DNA from: Squalus acanthias
Taxonomy: Eukaryota
DNA length: 64,000 nucleotides
Assembly: GCA_030390025.1 (NCBI GenBank)
Contig: CM059432.1
Coordinates: forward strand, 88,042,001-88,106,000
Direction of reading: 5' to 3'
A model generated the notes under the pieces. The model was not told the origin of the DNA. It was given only the letters and a program-made list of their open reading frames with translations, and made no database searches. The position numbers and the translations under genes are program-made. Positions 55,277 through 64,000 of this stretch are shown piece after piece. Position 1 is the stretch's first letter. Each line of letters begins with the position of its first letter.

Positions 55277-55401
55277 GACAGAAAAAGCTGCAAATACTCA
55301 GCAGGTCAGGCAGCATCCGTGGAGAGAGAAACAGAGTTAACATTTCAGGTCAAGATGCTGCCTGACCTGCTAATTATTTCCAGAATTTTATGTTGTCATT
55401 T
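55277..55401. mobile_element. Penelope terminal fold-back fragment immediately left of the ERV
   Basis: AGCAGGTCAGGCAGCATC ... GATGCTGCCTGACCTGCT inverted pair, matching 8700-8770. Confidence 0.65.
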
Positions 55402-55980
55402 TTGTAGAATTCGCAATATATCGCGATTTTATTAATAAGGAGAAAACACAGAGTCTCGTTCAAACAGCTTTTATTTCAGCAGAATGCTGTCAGGTTTCTC
55501 AAAGTGGACACAAGCAGCCTGTAAAATGGCCGCCGCACCTCGTGACAGAACATTCTAGACTTTTCGACAGGCAGACAAGATGGCGTTCCAATAAACATTT
55601 GTGCAAGATCGATTAAGATTCAGCACAGTGAAGATAATACACGAGACATTATGGGTTTGCAGTATACACATAAATACTGAAATCGGTCTCCCAGGTACGA
55701 ATAAAAGCTATTGTACCGAGTAATCAAGGGCCCATCCAAAAGACATTAATATGTAAAATCCCAACGACTCTACGATGAGAGAGCCGTTAGCAGGTAGTTA
55801 TACAAAACACTTGGAAGCCCCAAAACCCCTCCAGGGAGAACACCGACCGATTTAACAATGGGAGAAATATTAACAGGTACTCAGACAGTTACGAGTAGCC
55901 CCGAAACCCATTAAGAACGGAGATCACCCATACAAGACATTTGAGCGCCAAACTCAAACAAAAGAAAGGACATTAAGGTT

Positions 55981-56012
55981 GGGCGGGAAACGGAAGATTT
56001 TGTACTATAATT
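55981..56012 (+). promoter_or_regulatory. candidate LTR core promoter
   Basis: GGGCGG (Sp1 box), CGGAAG (ETS core), TATAAT, then pyrimidine-rich initiator-like sequence ~25-30 nt downstream. Confidence 0.45.
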
Positions 56013-56221
56013 ACAAGCTCCAACCGTCCATCTTTCTCTTATTCTCTTATCCGATCGACTCGTAACCTCGTGGCTGCTCCTGTGTTTTTGACTCGTAGTC
56101 TTGTTCCTGCTTGCCTGGTGCCTCTTTGAAAAAGACTGTTGAACTTTCTGATCCGTTCGGATCTACCTCGTGTCGCGTAACGAAGACCTATGTTGGTAAC
56201 TGGCATCGGAACCAAAGGCCC

Positions 56222-56258
56222 GAGATGAGATGAGATGAGATGAGATGAGATGAGATGA
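56222..56258 (+). repeat. (GAGAT)7 microsatellite inside LTR
   Basis: Direct reading. Confidence 0.9.
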
Positions 56259-57052
56259 GAAGAGAGGAAGACCATACTCATCGCCACGGTCAGTAAATCC
56301 CGACCGTGCCTGTAGGTCGAACAGCCAAGTTTTCCTTGCCAGGAAGACTTCTTTGAACTTGCAAGAACGGATCGTCAAAGATGATATTGACTGGGCTGTA
56401 TTCGGAAAGTACCTGTTAAACCAACCAACACAGATCTTCATCACAGCAGACGGTCCAGCCTGCTAGCCGGAGCAGAAGCAAGTAAACAAGTGGGACCAGG
56501 AGACCTCCTGATCGACACGTGGGTGCTGCGGTGAAAAACATCCGATCAGCTATTCGGAATTTCTCCGAGTTATCACGAGTGGTGAGCATGAGTCTCGAAA
56601 TCCTACGAATCTAGCTAGGACAGATATTGATAGGGGAGGGTTTAAGTATTAAGGATACTTGTAATGTGTGCCCCTATTTACGGTGTGTCGTTCGTTCCTC
56701 GTTTCCCTAGGATCAGCTATATAACTGCTTGTAAGATTGTACTGTCATTAATCTGTGCTTATGACATGTATTTCGTAATCTTAAATATCATGCAATAAAG
56801 ATTTTCCATTTCGTACCATTCAACCGAGTCTACATGAGTTTCATCTCCATTACTGCTCTCGCATCTAAGTCCAGTGTCTAGAACCATAAGGGCGAGTGAT
56901 TCGAACCACTCACAGGTGTGTCTAGTGCTCCCAGACTGGCTGGAGACCAGAACAGGCAACAAGGCCTAAACCCGCACTGACATACAGGCTGCACAGAGCC
57001 GCGTGAATCTCACAGGCTGCGAGACACGCAGGGTCAGAATCCCTTACAGAAA

Positions 57053-58861
57053 ATGGCGACCGCGGCAGGACACTGGCAGCGAGAGGGTAGTGTGTTAGAC
57101 TTTGGAATGACTGTACGAAATGTTATGCAGGAAAAGATAGCAGATTATGTGTTCGGAAAGGTTAATCTAACTAAGAAATGGATAAGTGAATTGTTAGCGG
57201 ATAAAAGCCCGCTAGAGGCAGCCGAAAGGTGGACAGATAGTAAAGAACATAAAAAGACACTCGAGAAAGCAGTCTGGCTTATGTGTTACAAAAGGCAGGT
57301 TCAGATTTCAAACCAGACCATTACAGCGCTAGTAGCTCGAATCAGTCATTTAGAGGGAGAAATGGATGAGAAGGTTTCTGGAGGGGAAATGCTCATTAGG
57401 AATTTAAGTGCGTTGCACCAAGAACGCCGGGAAATCTCCAGTCACCATAAAACAAGGATAGATTACCTCGAGTGTCAGGTCACTGAGGCAAAGTTAAATG
57501 AGAGCAGGTTAAAGGAACTATGTGCCCGCCAAGCTGCCCAGATAAGAACTCAGGAAGAGAGCTTAACGGGGGTTAGGGCGGCATATAAGTTGGCCCTTGA
57601 GGATAAGTTTCAGGGAGCCGATCATAGCGCCTGCCAAAAAGAGATAGAGCACCTCAAAAAGGCCGTGAACAAAGCGCACGGCATGGTGTGCCTTATCAGT
57701 CCGTCAGCACACCAGCCGCTAGTAAGTGAGAAGTTTAAGAAATCCCCACCAAGTAAAGCAGAGGAAGTAGTAGCCACTGCGCCCTCCGCGCCACCCAGCT
57801 ATTCGGAAACCTGGGTTAGGGAGGAAGCAATGGAAGAAACGAAAGAGCCCATTGAGAAAGAAGTGGAAAAGGGACCGTTGTATCCAGTAACGGGTATTAA
57901 AAGGGGCCCAAACAGAAACGGTGGGGAAGAACCAGGGGATCTCCTCGGACAGCTTGTGTTGCCTCACAGCTCACACCAGCTGAGAGTTATGATAAATCAC
58001 GTACGGAAGCTGACCGAGTCAGACGGCCCTTCCGTACATTTCAGAGAAGTTGAGCAAACCGCAGCCATTAACGGCTGCGATGATGGGGAAACAGCAAAAA
58101 TGCTGTTGTTTTCGTTAGGCAGTACAATCCTTCAGTGTCTCTCAGGCGAGAGCAAGAGGGGAACCAAGACTTATGAGGCATTAAAGAATGAGGTCCTGGA
58201 AGTGTTGGGGGCGGACGATGAAGGTCCGTTTGCTAGAGTGGGACAGACAGTGCAGATGGAGGGAGAACCCCCGAAGGTTTTTGCCGACAGGCTGTGGCCA
58301 GTATATGAGCGCAGCTGTCTAGGTGCGCCCGAGCGCGAAGATGTGGAAGGCGCCGGTTTAGCTCATTGGCTTAGGTGCATAATAGCCAACAGTTTACCAG
58401 CCATCAGAGAGCAGGCAAAAGCATGGTTTGATCCCAATGACCCCAACATTACGGAAGAGTCGGTCTTGAATCGACTCACGTTAGGATATCGCAATATAAG
58501 GGGTATGGCAACACGTCCCCTTAAGGGAAAAGTACATGAGGTACGACCCGCAGCCCCGTATCAAAGAGAGTGGCATCAGGAGGGTAATCGCGCCCCACAG
58601 GCAAGTAATGCTTGTTACGGGTGTGGGAAGACAGGGCACTGGCGCAAGCATTGCAGGAACCCTTGGAAAGATTCCAAGGATAAAAATCCCGCGGTCCGAG
58701 CCCAGGCGCCTGTCCCGGCTAGGGAAGCTAATGCACCCACCCCTCCCGACGACCTCGAAGTAGTGTTAGGAGCCATGCGCAATCTATTGAGTGCACATGG
58801 AAAGGTGGCTGTCGCAACCGGCCCCGTAGGTGCCGCAGGACCGTCTAATAGTACCCCATGA
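57053..58861 (+). CDS. gag: Gag polyprotein (602 aa)
   Basis: Intact ORF; N-terminal coiled-coil-like region, PSAPPSY late motif, CYGCGKTGHWRKHC zinc knuckle (58613-58654). Confidence 0.9.
   Translation: MATAAGHWQREGSVLDFGMTVRNVMQEKIADYVFGKVNLTKKWISELLADKSPLEAAERWTDSKEHKKTLEKAVWLMCYKRQVQISNQTITALVARISHLEGEMDEKVSGGEMLIRNLSALHQERREISSHHKTRIDYLECQVTEAKLNESRLKELCARQAAQIRTQEESLTGVRAAYKLALEDKFQGADHSACQKEIEHLKKAVNKAHGMVCLISPSAHQPLVSEKFKKSPPSKAEEVVATAPSAPPSYSETWVREEAMEETKEPIEKEVEKGPLYPVTGIKRGPNRNGGEEPGDLLGQLVLPHSSHQLRVMINHVRKLTESDGPSVHFREVEQTAAINGCDDGETAKMLLFSLGSTILQCLSGESKRGTKTYEALKNEVLEVLGADDEGPFARVGQTVQMEGEPPKVFADRLWPVYERSCLGAPEREDVEGAGLAHWLRCIIANSLPAIREQAKAWFDPNDPNITEESVLNRLTLGYRNIRGMATRPLKGKVHEVRPAAPYQREWHQEGNRAPQASNACYGCGKTGHWRKHCRNPWKDSKDKNPAVRAQAPVPAREANAPTPPDDLEVVLGAMRNLLSAHGKVAVATGPVGAAGPSNSTP
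57054..57071 (+). promoter_or_regulatory. primer binding site (tRNA-Ser-like)
   Basis: TGGCGACCGCGGCAGGAC 5 nt after ...TTACA; TGG complements tRNA CCA and the rest resembles tRNA-Ser 3' ends. Confidence 0.55.
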
Positions 58862-59869
58862 CTAGAACCCGCGCAGCCCGTCTACCTGTGTCCGCTTAGC
58901 TATGATGCGTGGAAGCGACCTTTGGTGGAGATGGAGGTAGAGAAACAGAGGGGTAGTTATTTGTTGGACACGGGAGCTTCTTGCACCATAATCCATACAG
59001 ATAGCCCTTTTGACTCGCCGCTATCTACCAGGGTCCCATTCACGTTAGCGGGGTTCACAGGAAAAGAACAGGCTGGCGCGTTCTCCCTTCCGCTATCCAT
59101 TCGTTTGGGAGCACTTCACCTTAAGTGGAAGTGTATACTGATGGAATGGCAGGAGGGGGGTGGAAGAGGTATTCTCGGGTCTGATCTTCTATCGGGACAC
59201 GGGATCCTCGTGGACCTCAGAAATCACTGTCTCTGGGGGGCTAAGGGTGAAAAAGGCGAGGTAGTAGTGATTCCGGGGGAGGAAGAAACAGGGGTCCTGT
59301 GTACCGTACAGCCATCCGGAGGCTACGACCTCAGGCTTATGGTCGCAGATGTCCCAACGGACATGCAAACGTACGTGTCAGATAATATGCACGCGTTTGC
59401 AACCCACAAGCACGATTGTGGGAGGGTTATCGGGTTTGAGGTCAGCGTAGATGGGGACCCCATGACCCGACCCCAAAAGCAGTATAACTTCCCCAAAGAA
59501 GCAGAACCCGATATGGAGACAGCAATGTCCTCCTTGGTGCAGCAGGGCGTGTTGAGGCCGATAGCCACACACGTGAACTCCCCATTATGGCCGGTTAGGA
59601 AGCCGGATAATTCGTGGAGAGCCACGGTGGACTACAGAGTCCTTAACAGTAACATTCCCGCCTGCGCGCCCACGGTAGCAGCAGTTGCTGACCTAATAGG
59701 GAGCATCCCAGCGTCCGCGACCACGTTCACGGTGCTGGATATCTCGAACGGTTTTTGGTCCATCCCGCTGAGGCGAGAGGACCAGTACAAGTTTGCCTTT
59801 ACTTTCAAGGGACAACAGTACACATGGAACTGTCTGCCACAGGGTTTCCACAATAGCCCCAGTATTTTT
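58862..59869 (+). CDS. pol: Pol 5' part (protease + RT N-terminus), in frame with gag after the UGA
   Basis: LLDTGAS, ILGSD, NSPLWPVRKPD.SWR..VDYR.LN, LDISNGFWSIPL, LPQGFHNSP. Confidence 0.9.
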
Positions 59870-62800
59870 CCATCAGTGTATGGCAGGAAGTTTAAAGGAG
59901 TTTAGTCAGCCCAATCAGATAGTGCAGTACGTGGATGATTTGCTCCTATTTACGGACTCAAGGGAGGAGCATGGACCACTACTGGACGAGTTATTGGAGC
60001 TGCTAGCGAGAAAGGGTTTAAAAATAAATCCTAAGAAAGCACGTATCGGTCAGCGGGAAGTAAAATTCCTGGGACTGACCATACGCGCTGGGGAAAGAGC
60101 CATAGACAAAGCGAGGAGGGAGTCGGTGCAAGAATTACCGATTCCCAACAACATAAGGGGTGTGAGGTCCTTCTTGGGACTGACCGGTTACTGCAGGGAC
60201 TTTATCGAAGACTATGCGGCCACAGCAGCGCTGCTCCTCCGACTCCTCCATAAGGGGGTGGAGTGGTCTTGGGACGAGGGCTGCCAAGCAGCCTTCGAGA
60301 AGTTAAAAAGGGATCTGCAGACCGCGCCAGCCTTAGGGGCCATAGATGGGGGGAAGGAGTTTTTCCTGGAGGTAGCTGCCAGCGGAGACAGCTTGAGCGC
60401 TGTGCTGCTCCAAGAGCGTCACGGCAAGCTGAGGCCGGTTGTCTATTCATCCAGGGTGTTAACGGATGTGGAGAGAAGTTTCTCCAATTGCGAAAGGCAC
60501 CTTTTAGCCACGCATTGGGCTGTGAAAAGATCAGCGATCTTCACAGGGCTCTCTCCCATCACTCTCCTCACACATCACACACCAACTAAGATGCTTCTGG
60601 ATGGGAGGATTAAAGATGGGACCGTAAGCAGCGCGCGCATTGCGCGCTGGACCCTTCTTCTTTCCCAGATGGATCTTAAAGTAAAAGGTCTTTGCGAGCC
60701 CAGGCTTGCGGCCAATTTGGTATACCCCGGTACAGCCCACCGGTGTTCGGTGGAAGGGGTGTGGGACATCAACATAGGTTTACGGGCCGGGATACATCCC
60801 ACTGGGTGCGAGATTTATGTTGATGGGTCTAGCACAGTATCTGCTGGCGAACGACTCACGGGGTGTGGAGTTTATGACCCTGCGGCAAACCTTGCCCTGG
60901 CGATCAAGCTCCCCAGCACCATGAGCGCGCAGCAGGCTGAGCTGTCTGCCGTGGTGTACGTTGTTACCCACCCAGACATTTTCCCAACCCCATACACGAT
61001 TTGCTCGGACAGTATGTTCACCTGCAATTCGTGTACGGAATACCTGGCCATTTGGTCCCGCCGTGGATACACCTCCGCGGACGGGCGACCTTTAACGGTG
61101 AAGCCCTTGCTGGAAAAGATCTTAGCAGCAGCAGTAGGGGAGGAAGGAGAGATTTTCATCCATAAGGTGAAAGCTCACTCCTCCACAGAGCCCCGTGGGG
61201 AGGGCAACCAGCAGGCGGATGCGCTAGCCAGGGAAGGTGCCCGCAACGGCATTTTCTGGGACCCCTATGGGACCAGACCCATAGCAGCGATCCAAGGCAG
61301 GGACGGGAATCCCGGGAACACCAGGGTAGCATTGCCCCTAGACCTTAAGACCGTCCAAACCCAGGATCCCGCCCTAAAAGCAGTCCTAAAAACCATTGCT
61401 GAGGGGAGGCAGGTAGAAGGTCCGTACAGTACGGCAACCCTCTCAGTTAAGGAAGGCATGCTGTTCCGCGAGGAGCAGTGGGTTGTGCCGCAGCAGCACA
61501 GGAGGGAATTCCTCCAGTTGGCTCACGAGGGACCAGGGGCAGGGCACCCCGGGCCCGAGGTTACCTGGCAACGGGTAGAGCAAGCGGGATGGTGGCCAGG
61601 GCTCAGGGAACAAGTCCGCGAGTTCTGTGCAAACTGTCTTGTGTGCGCTGCAAACAACCCAGACCCCCAGAAAAGGAAGGTGCCCATGGAACACGTAAGA
61701 AGGGTAGAGGGACCATGGCAGTCGATACAGATCGACTATATAGGACCCCTGCCCACCACCCAGGGAGGTTATAAATACTGCCTCGTCTTGGTGGATGTGT
61801 TTTCCAAGTGGATGGAAGCCTTCCCCTGTCGAACAGCTACGGCACTGGGTACTGCAAAAATCTTGGTCCGGGAAGTGTTCTCGCGGTGGGGACTTCCCCG
61901 TTTTGTGGAGTCAGACCAAGGGAGTCATTTCACCGGCCAGGTGATGCAGAACACCCTCATGCTTTTGGGCATTGAAGGGAAGTGGCACGTAGCACACAAT
62001 CCCCAGTCATCCGGGATTGTTGAACGCATGAACCGGACCCTGAAGGAGAAATTGAGGAAAGAGACTAGGAACTCGCCCCAAAAATGGGCGGAAGTTCTGC
62101 CTTTAGTCCTCATGGGGGTCCGGGCCAGTCAGTCAAAAAGTACGGGGTACTCCCCGCACGAGGTGATGACTGGGAGGCTCATGCGAACCCCCACCCATGT
62201 GCTAGCGCCGGTGCTCACTGAGGGTCAGCTCCAAGAGATAAGCAGGGACAAGTTCGCCCAGACTCTCTTGGAGCGCCTGAAGCAGGTTTATGAGCAGGCG
62301 GCTGGGAACATGGGAAGGCAGCATCAGGGCAATCGCCTGCTGCTGGAACCCCGCAAAACGCGGGAGTGGGAAGTAGGAGACCAGGTCATGGTCAGAAACT
62401 ACGCCAGAGTAGGGAGTCTGGAACCACTGTATATGGGACCCTACAACATTGTAGACAAGGCGAGTCCCATGGTATACGCCGTAAAAGTACCTCGGCGCAC
62501 TAAGTGGTTCCACGTAAACCAATGCAAACTGTACAAGCCAGGTGCGCAAGGGAAAACCACAGCGGTAAACCCTGCCAGTGGGGAAGCACAGCCCCAGGTA
62601 GGACCACAAGGCACACAGGCAGGCATAGCAGCTTGCATCAGGGGAGGGGACATCCTGGAAGATCATGAAGCCTTTTTGTGGAGTTGGGAGTCAGATGAGG
62701 GAGAATTCCGGGAACTCGAGTCAGATGAGGATAGTGATGAAGACGAGTGGTTTTTGGGGAACGGTCCCATTTTAGGTATAGGGAGGATACGGGCTGCAGA

Positions 62801-63383
62801 TAGAGATCCACACAGGGTGGACACACAAGCTGCAGGTCCCGAAGACAGGAGGGAGGAGCTAGGGGAGGCGGGGCCAGCCGCTGTGGGAGCACAGGGAGTG
62901 ACGGTGAGGACCCCAGAGACAGAGCCGCCCGCTTTGAACGTCCCGCCCTCGGGGGAGGCAGAGATCGCGAGTGAAGGGCCGCCTGCTGGGCCGAGCAGGG
63001 TGGAGCCACAAACTGCGAGCCCCGAGGTTAGGGAGGCGGAGTCAGCGGAGGCGGAGCCAGCGACTGTGGTGGAACCCCAGGTCGTCCCGATGGAAGTCTC
63101 GGAACCCGGTCCGTCAGTCACGGAACCCCCGCCCATGGCAACTCCCCGTAGGTCAAGTAGAGAACCCCAGCCCAGGAGGATGTGGTCATGTCCCCAGACT
63201 GCCCCAAGGCGTAGACTTAAGGTTAAGGCAACCCAGATACAGCCCGGCCCCATCGCAGCAGCAACAGGCTGCGGCAGATCAGAGGAAGGAATCAGTGCAG
63301 CAACAGGCTGCGGCAGATCAAAGGGAAGGGTCAGTGCCCTCCCACCGTCGGGAAGAGCTCGCAGCAGCCTTCTCAGAATTTAA
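59870..63383 (+). CDS. pol: Pol 3' part (RT YVDD, tether, RNase H, integrase, long C-terminal tail) after +1 frameshift
   Basis: YVDD 59928-59939; IYVDGS...AQQAEL...SDS...HKVKAH...GNQQADALA; H-H-C-C, IDYIG, SDQGSHF, ERMN, GPY. Confidence 0.9.
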
Positions 63384-63510
63384 AGGGGCCGCCCTGAGAA
63401 CGGGCGGCACTGTATAGTAATAAGTTTTAAGTTTTAAGTTCATAGTTCAAGGTTAAGTTTATAGTTTTAATAAGGTTAAGATTGTAGTGTTTTTAACAGA
63501 AAACGATAAA

Positions 63511-64000
63511 ATGATGGGAGCTTTAAAGATAGGTTTAGTTAAAGTTTATTCAGCGAACGTTGAAGTTTACGTGAGGCGAGGTCAGGGGACCCGCTCACCC
63601 TTCACAAAAGCCAGAGACTCTTGCGAGGCTGGCTACCTCATTCTATCTGATCACAGGAACCAAGGAAGGATGGAACGAATTCTAGTATTGCTCGCGGCAA
63701 TCGGATGTGGATTGGCCTATCGAGGCCGCACCAAGGATGTCGTGGTGTTTGGATGTTCCGGGGACACGGCCCCCATCGCGGTGGATGGGACCGGAAGACG
63801 GGAGGCAGAGGAGACCAGCACCTATTTCCACAAGGGAAGGTGGCCAGGATGGCTGGGAACGAACTCAACGGAGTATTCTAGCACATCGGGGTTTGCCTAC
63901 AAAGAGACTTCTTTAATGTGCCCCAAAGTAAGGATCATCGCACCCAGGATCAGCGTCACCGTCGGCAAACGGATTTGTTTGACTTGTAGTGGGAATGTCC
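63511..64000 (+). CDS. third ORF in env position (secreted/membrane glycoprotein), 3'-partial; possible start at 63511 or 63670
   Basis: Open from ATG 63511 to the window end without a stop; MERILVLLAAIGCGLA signal-peptide-like segment at 63670; NST sequon; splice-acceptor-like sites at 63499 and 63656. Confidence 0.75.
   Translation, partial: MMGALKIGLVKVYSANVEVYVRRGQGTRSPFTKARDSCEAGYLILSDHRNQGRMERILVLLAAIGCGLAYRGRTKDVVVFGCSGDTAPIAVDGTGRREAEETSTYFHKGRWPGWLGTNSTEYSSTSGFAYKETSLMCPKVRIIAPRISVTVGKRICLTCSGNV

Follow-up and report, generated by a model that had tools for sequence, protein, structure and literature searches.

Readthrough of a stop codon between gag and pol is textbook knowledge for retroviruses, and UGA stops at this junction are on record. 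Here we describe the gag-pol junction of an endogenous retrovirus (ERV) at the 3' end of a 64,000-nucleotide stretch of the Squalus acanthias genome (GenBank assembly GCA_030390025.1, contig CM059432.1, positions 88,042,001 to 88,106,000 of the forward strand; hereafter the window, numbered from its first letter). The element comprises gag, protease, reverse transcriptase (RT), tether, RNase H, integrase and an env-like open reading frame (ORF), and its gag UGA is followed by CUAG and by a long predicted RNA stem. Published sources are cited below for the parts of their text that were available to us.

The alphavirus nsP3-nsP4 junction carries an extended stem-loop behind its stop codon: Sindbis virus (SINV) has UGA-CUA and a 177-nt stem-loop at +16, and Venezuelan equine encephalitis virus (VEEV) has UGA-CGG and a 126-nt stem-loop at +12 (Firth et al. 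2011, PMC3159437; PMC13517186). Stems of this type increase readthrough up to 10-fold (PMC3159437). The shark junction shares the type II stop-codon context (UGA-CUA, as in SINV) and, by prediction, an extended stem-loop that begins at +12 to +16 and expression of the polymerase through readthrough. In contrast to alphaviruses, the site is a retroviral gag-pol junction, and the predicted structure is longer, an unbranched stem of 84 bp over ~220 nt, and is embedded in the sequence that encodes the protease.

Among retroviruses, murine leukaemia virus (MLV) and other gammaretroviruses likewise keep gag, stop and pol in one frame with a 3' stimulator at about +12, but they use UAG, a GGR context and an H-type pseudoknot where the window has UGA, CUAG and a rod. 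UGA does stand between gag and pol in three retroviruses of aquatic vertebrates, namely SSSV (salmon swim bladder sarcoma virus; UGAAGA), zebrafish endogenous retrovirus (ZFERV; UGACGA) and a frog ERV (UGAAGU) (PMC13517186). None of them has CUA(G), and the section of that review on these viruses describes no stimulator. An earlier reading of the window from its letters alone (the first-pass annotation) had contrasted the site with gamma- and epsilonretroviruses as users of UAG, a remark that is incomplete in view of these recorded UGA junctions.

Two further groups are close in other respects. Lokiretroviruses (Wang and Han 2020, PMC7947760) include a subgroup with a UGA-CUA junction, have dual RNase H and have integrase homologues named NYNRIN-like; their Env resembles the paramyxovirus F protein, the screen that described them gives 0/3 in its Chondrichthyes row, and the available text makes no mention of readthrough. 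Snakehead retrovirus (SnRV), represented here by locus L018, has a Gag ORF of 625 codons against 626 in the window, a single CCHC knuckle that precedes an in-frame stop by 82 codons, and a protease DTG 32 codons after that stop, against 36 in the window. It differs in its UAG-GGC junction (type III-like) and in having no rod; the Gag similarity is weak (hhalign 59%, coiled coil), and the tree leaves a shared clade with the window unsettled.

The features at the shark junction are as follows.

57053..58861, plus strand: gag, 602 amino acids from the first ATG; N-terminus resembling a coiled coil, a single CCHC knuckle
58613..58654, plus strand: CX2CX4HX4C zinc knuckle, 82 codons upstream of the gag stop, a distance identical in L018
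58859..58865, plus strand: gag stop and type II context, TGA-CTAG, read from the sequence
58864..59084, plus strand: predicted unbranched RNA rod of 84 bp, from folding, with a robust core at 58874-59075
58869..58917, plus strand: arms of a small stem or pseudoknot proposed in the first-pass annotation, mutually exclusive with the rod and unsupported in full context
58907..59190 (end approximate), plus strand: aspartic protease, from Pfam RVP and an alignment to HIV-1 protease, with DTG at 58967

The gag frame (56981-58861, 626 codons) ends in TGA at 58859-61. CTAG follows at 58862-65, and the downstream frame, CTA GAA CCC, is open to the DTG. On re-reading the sequence we found the positions that had been assigned to the stop, the CTAG, the DTG and four stem arms (CCGCGCA, TGCGTGG, CGCTT and AAGCG) all correct. 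The context had also been called leaky, and TGACTA at 58859-64 is indeed a type II signal in the Beier-Grimm definition, UGA followed by CUA or CGG (PMC13517186). CTAG makes up 0.2% of the 4-mers in the element and follows 3 of the 1238 plus-strand TGAs in the window, so its presence after the gag TGA is unlikely to be due to chance. The gammaretroviral type III signal (UAG-G with a purine-rich 8-nt spacer) is not matched: set beside L039 and others, the junction reads UGA-CUAGAACC. Decoding of the UGA as selenocysteine is unsupported, as an Rfam scan of 56000-64000, which leaves the 3' end of the element outside the window, returned one chance match, no selenocysteine insertion sequence (SECIS) and no readthrough family.

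The position of the stop is shared by relatives. The three Gag homologues found, one of them from a skate, are 52, 44 and 35% identical to the window Gag, and each stops no more than one alignment column away from its end; one homologue cluster includes further skate copies of equal length. We also aligned contigs from 4 of 24 sequencing runs, labelled with four organisms, to 58500-59300. Among the best 40 of the 78 resulting variant rows, none fell at 58859-65 in any of the four runs. In each of these runs ~27-48% of the depth carries a variant at the flanking positions 58857 and 58870, and a stop change on those haplotypes would be expected to rank alongside these variants. One contig of run X9 was 100% identical to the window over 58827-58913, and loose contig ends revealed a subfamily whose gag tail is dissimilar up to 58856 and similar from 58857 onward. 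A search for fused Gag-Pol relatives found none among 7571 long candidates, which is weak evidence.

Downstream of the stop, a gapless alignment pairs ORF residues 16-45 with residues 5-34 of HIV-1 protease, and the Pfam RVP match begins at residue 17. The first Met (58931) is ORF residue 24 and falls within the protease domain; starting there would remove protease residues 1-12. Its position is not conserved, being 12-13 residues before DTG in the window and in protein P0001 and 3 in frog Pols. As far as the sequence can tell, then, an essential ORF runs on in frame past the stop without a usable start of its own, and since the first Met lies within the protease and is unconserved, entry into Pol must be via the stop or via a splice. 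Readthrough of a conserved UGA-CUAG, as the first-pass annotation had proposed, is well supported by these comparisons, which cover the Gag ends, the variants, the protease start and the recurrence of the context described below; we consider it very likely to occur.

The predicted downstream structure is large. Positions 58864-59084 fold as a single unbranched rod of 84 pairs (44 G-C, 28 A-U and 12 G-U) at -98.0 kcal/mol, with a mean pair probability of 0.90. Compared with 300 dinucleotide shuffles the rod has a z-score of -4.9; no shuffle was as stable, and the biggest shuffled rod had 60 bp. Among 203 windows of 240 nt over gag-pol no rod is larger: the median is 22 bp and the runner-up elsewhere has 57. 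Widening the context to 900 nt leaves the rod in place, as does folding at 20 C, and for the minus strand the energy is -81.6 instead of -98.0 kcal/mol, a loss of 16. Counting the U of UGA as +1, the robust core (58874-59075) begins at +16, as does the SINV stem-loop, and a first helix spans +6 to +10; the latter would lie inside a ribosome that has UGA in its A site. The predicted rod has the form of an alphavirus-type stimulator, a long stem-loop with its 5' arm at about +9 to +16. Thirteen variants were listed in the rod, two of them at unpaired sites. In the core, which was picked post hoc, five of the six listed paired-site variants keep pairing (2.9 expected, P = 0.04). These folding results suggest that the rod probably forms in vivo, and we lean slightly towards its stimulating readthrough. 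Other strongly folded stretches in gag and pol lie at 61462-61661, 57962-58161, 59522-59688 and 61820-61982 (z down to -5.4; rods of 56-57 bp).

UGA-CUA recurs at other gag-pol junctions. A scan with an RT motif, in which the junction sequence was not specified, yielded 18 loci. Three of them have an in-frame TGA-CTA gag-pol junction: L001 (CTA-A), L011 (CTA-G) and L017 (CTA-G). L018 has TAG-GGC in a layout otherwise like that of the window, and is the closest of the loci in protease-RT (PR-RT; 37.5%). L008, L014, L015 and L016 have an in-frame TGA-AGG-GGT gag/pol stop, and L004 and L005 have TAG-AGG-GGC; judged by their sequences and the tree, we take these six to be ERV-L-type elements, the former of mouse and the latter of avian type. 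Of the remaining eight loci, some are broken or truncated and others are false or run on in a different frame. The 2026 readthrough review makes no use of the term ERV-L (PMC13517186).

The lokiretrovirus supplement (PMC7947760) has 24 elements, 10 of which are annotated with fused and 14 with separate gag and pol (9 of these 14 were unexamined or lacked gag); junction frames were read by eye. In the part of the file covered, four of the 17 TGACTAG matches are gag-pol junctions (Ofa, Cne, Pyo and Sau), and Bsp has TGA-CTA-A, so that TGA-CTA is present in at least 5 of the 24 published sequences. Loki-Pfl, annotated as fused, has CGA-CTA-A where its relatives have TGA-CTA, which resembles the opal/arginine switch of chikungunya virus in the review table (PMC13517186).

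The structures behind these junctions vary. L001 and L011 (67% identical over 96 nt) share a compact hairpin from about +16 with a second hairpin behind it, spanning ~+16 to +90 overall. In their consensus, which was derived from the same two sequences, 4 of the 27 pairs have both partners altered and 9 have one partner altered, and no pair is broken; L011 alone, over 240 nt, is no more stable than its shuffles (z 0.16). L017, in which the junction lies on the minus strand near 1030 once the locus is reversed, is a class-I-related fish ERV whose Gag is weakly similar to that of the window (E 9e-6). In L018, which like L017 has no rod, the largest unbranched stem within 240 nt is 13 bp. A scan of viral contigs for PR-RT-related loci found nothing, and a GTDB scan gave one match, which lacked an RT. 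A TGACTA...DTG pattern, which proved too loose, picked out 120 stretches of viral contigs, and there was no retroviral match among the 121 loci tested.

To which retroviruses is the shark element related? Among named proteins the best matches come from Heptranchias (83%) and a skate; proteins of shark, frog and coelacanth that are labelled NYNRIN-like are its nearest named relatives. The closest solved RT in the PDB is that of foamy virus Pol (114 bits vs 72 for MLV). We built a quick RT tree of 60 rows and, after removing 26 redundant or gappy rows, a careful tree for approximately unbiased (AU) tests. Only the window RT piece upstream of a frame break was used; L001 and L011 were labelled as lokiretroviruses by likeness to the published junctions, and L013 by the tree. 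The window RT was placed within Retroviridae (100/98), where the trees put it with L018, foamy and ERV-L rows in a basal group whose branching they did not resolve. A clade with the lokiretrovirus rows was rejected (p = 0.0015), as was one with gamma- and epsilon-type rows (p = 2e-5). A clade with the three mammalian foamy rows was borderline (p = 0.046) in a reference set without the foamy-like ERVs (FLERVs) of fish and sharks, and a 14-row basal clade with L018, a group named after seeing the tree, was not rejected (p = 0.39).

We identified L018 as SnRV by its UAG-GGC junction, which matches the one listed for that virus (PMC13517186). Judged by its RT and layout, the shark element is a basal retrovirus, and probably SnRV-like. 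Membership of the lokiretroviruses was rejected, given the AU result and the lack of the window's knuckle in the lokiretrovirus Gags compared. Nor did we accept a foamy virus or teleost foamy-like ERV, given the knuckle at 58613-54; fish foamy-like ERV Gag has no Cys-His box (PMC5210030). SnRV-like ERVs are known from elephant shark, among them CmiERV lineage I (Han 2015, PMC4422223; PMC4977317), and a shark-frog foamy-like clade has been reported (PMC5512871). Present data do not distinguish an SnRV-like element from a member of the latter clade.

Taken as a whole, the junction is in our judgement probably the gag-pol recoding site of a multi-copy, basal shark ERV with an alphavirus-like bipartite readthrough signal. 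The majority of ribosomes would terminate at the UGA and release Gag, and a minority, a few per cent, would decode it by a near-cognate tRNA and continue into protease-RT-RNase H-integrase to give Gag-Pol. UGA readthrough elsewhere inserts Trp, Arg or Cys, and the same would be expected here by analogy. The UGA-CUAG type II context would supply basal leakiness. The long stem-loop, with its stable base at about +12 to +16 at the ribosomal mRNA entrance, would boost it.

Several observations weigh against this reading. The Gag homologues are protein sequences, in which neither the stop codon nor the pol frame is visible, and a minor sense-codon variant could sit among the 38 weaker of the 78 variant rows. 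The element is structured in general: over 62 windows the mean z is -1.5, and the window at 61462 reaches -5.4, against -5.7 at the junction (25 shuffles each). Over the whole rod, 6 of the 11 paired-site variants keep pairing (4.5 expected, P = 0.16); the common changes 58870 C>A, 59044 G>A and 59078 G>A disrupt rod pairs, and compensatory changes are not visible because the variants are unphased. L017 has UGA-CUAG without a proximal hairpin, and the downstream stem of PSIV gives no stimulation of UGA-CUA readthrough (PMC13517186).

A rival reading is readthrough driven by the UGA-CUAG context alone, with the rod serving packaging, export, splice control or general genome structure. UGACUAG alone gives at least ~1.3% readthrough, and stems are required for UGACUA only under some conditions (PMC13517186), which is consistent with such a role for the context, as are the hairpin-free L017, the further strongly folded windows of the element and the common variants that disrupt rod pairs at +12. 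However, the largest rod in 6.3 kb begins right after the stop, and the two lokiretrovirus loci share a hairpin start at about +16. We regard a context-only signal as rather unlikely.

A route to Pol without readthrough is improbable. Foamy viruses express pol from a separate mRNA, and a foamy-like spliced mRNA could skip the stop, perhaps with the AG of CTAG (58864-65) as acceptor; alternatively, ribosomes could reinitiate at AUG 58931. The foamy affinity of the RT noted above would suit the first of these. On inspection of the sequence, however, no clear polypyrimidine tract precedes the AG, and the AUG lies within the protease domain at an unconserved position. Nor does the foamy-like route agree with the Gag knuckle, which fish foamy-like ERVs lack, or with a foamy clade that is only borderline.

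Still less probable is the stimulator drawn in the first-pass annotation, a small stem (CCGCGCA with TGCGTGG) and crossing helix (CGCTT with AAGCG) at 58869-58917, even if it formed transiently or during transcription in place of the rod. This proposal had overlooked the 220-nt rod built from the same nucleotides. Of 3000 shuffles, 16% contain a stem of at least 7 bp in the corresponding place, as do 22% of 2083 codon-spaced positions along the element; for a stem with a crossing 5-bp helix the shares are 6% of shuffles and 10% of natural positions. The 62-nt stem region folds no better than shuffles (z = +0.34). Pseudoknot geometry demands a loop (loop 3) that crosses stem 1. As drawn, the 3' arm of stem 1 ends at 58912 and that of stem 2 starts at 58913, with zero nucleotides between them, so the needed loop is missing. 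Stem 1 begins at +11, close to the MLV spacing, but is favoured only in truncated folds (p 0.49 for 58862-58920 and p 0.91 for 58862-59040). With the downstream 240 nt included its pair probability falls to ~0, and imposing it on the full context carries a penalty of 18-20 kcal/mol at 37 C. One of its pairs is lost through the common change 58870 C>A, and by eye a divergent contig end keeps the amino acids P-L-x-Y-D-A-W-K-R-P while breaking pairs of both stems. An H-type pseudoknot of the gammaretroviral type III kind was accordingly rejected as chance-level, lacking loop 3 and outcompeted by the rod, a rejection made with general folding rather than a dedicated pseudoknot predictor.

Finally, it is scarcely credible, and largely refuted, that a formerly fused gag-pol gained the TGA through a nonsense mutation, for instance by CpG decay of CGA, and that the context is coincidental. 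The fused annotations among lokiretroviruses, one with CGA-CTA (PMC7947760), and the frequency of CpG-type changes in the window element's family would favour it, but the Gag end is shared down to 35% identity, the best 40 of the 78 variant rows hold no stop variant and no fused relative was found among the 7571 long candidates, which is weak evidence. The sense codon in other copies, named in the first-pass annotation as what would overturn readthrough, was looked for and did not appear among those rows.

The remaining features of the element are as follows.

57054..57071, plus strand: primer-binding-site (PBS)-like 18-mer, located as a motif, overlapping the first ATG of the gag ORF
59594..60083, plus strand: RT core, broken in the window copy by a frame change near 59838-59870
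60270..62003, plus strand: tether (degenerate RNase H), RNase H and integrase, from domain matches; the pol frame ends at 63383
63457..64000, plus strand: env-like ORF, a guess from its position, extending past the window edge

The 18-mer probably resembles the complement of the 3' end of a tRNA-Arg. The true gag start is likelier to be the invariant Met at 57125 than the first ATG that overlaps the PBS; database Gag N-termini of the form MATAAG and MATTKG are probably translated PBS. A Pfam search with gag gave no match, and a single-sequence model of the protease was unusable, with a predicted local distance difference test (pLDDT) score of 36. The RT frame break leaves the window copy unable to make a whole Pol, and there is no second copy of the element inside the window. 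Words sampled from 56600-64000 were present at 45-76% in the runs of five labelled organisms, some of them no larger than 100-170 million letters; this points to a young family, high in copy number and common to several species.

Upstream of gag, a region like a long terminal repeat (LTR) has a TATA near 56720 and an AATAAA at 56795, and 55400-56640, before it, resembles another stretch of non-coding viral or repeat DNA, which includes a run of (GATGA)n at ~56224-56260. After the SH3-like domain of integrase, 62540-63383 holds ~280 acidic, proline-rich codons and a short direct duplication near 63260-63320. The env-position ORF has a signal-peptide-like stretch; its 181 residues inside the window had no Pfam, PDB or atlas match. 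Scans for bacterial promoters and tRNAs gave nothing relevant.

Within the literature searched, which covered neither most subscription journals nor Repbase and the FLERV supplements, we found no description of a retroviral UGA-CUA with an extended stem-loop. The available text of the readthrough review lists no retrovirus with UGACUA (PMC13517186), and the available parts of PMC9040795, PMC12440569, PMC5512871, PMC5210030, PMC4299795, PMC8922424, PMC10435555, PMC3159437 and PMC5009743 do not describe the signal. Within that literature, the combination of a type II signal like that of alphaviruses and a predicted stem of unusual length thus appears to be new for a retrovirus.

These findings bear on how such elements are annotated and counted. 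Databases label Pols of this kind as NYNRIN-like host proteins with an internal Met start, and screens for intact ERVs may count a programmed TGA as a defect. They also bear on a gap in the biology of the family. Readthrough at gag-pol has been dissected in gammaretroviruses only, with UAG and a pseudoknot, and the 2026 review calls the cis-elements of epsilonretroviruses and unclassified fish retroviruses unclear (PMC13517186); the shark site offers a concrete, testable signal. The likeness to alphaviruses suggests that the two virus groups converged on one recoding design. More speculatively, and in our view doubtfully, UGA-CUA with a 3' stem-loop at +16 could be an unrecognised ancient gag-pol strategy of retroviruses, maybe ancestral to UAG-pseudoknot readthrough and to frameshifting. 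It would then be present in three branches: a lokiretrovirus subgroup (sister to all retroviruses), the basal shark lineage and the class-I-related fish ERV, which has no hairpin. If so, the 84-bp rod over the shark protease gene would exceed every stimulator in the review table (PMC13517186).

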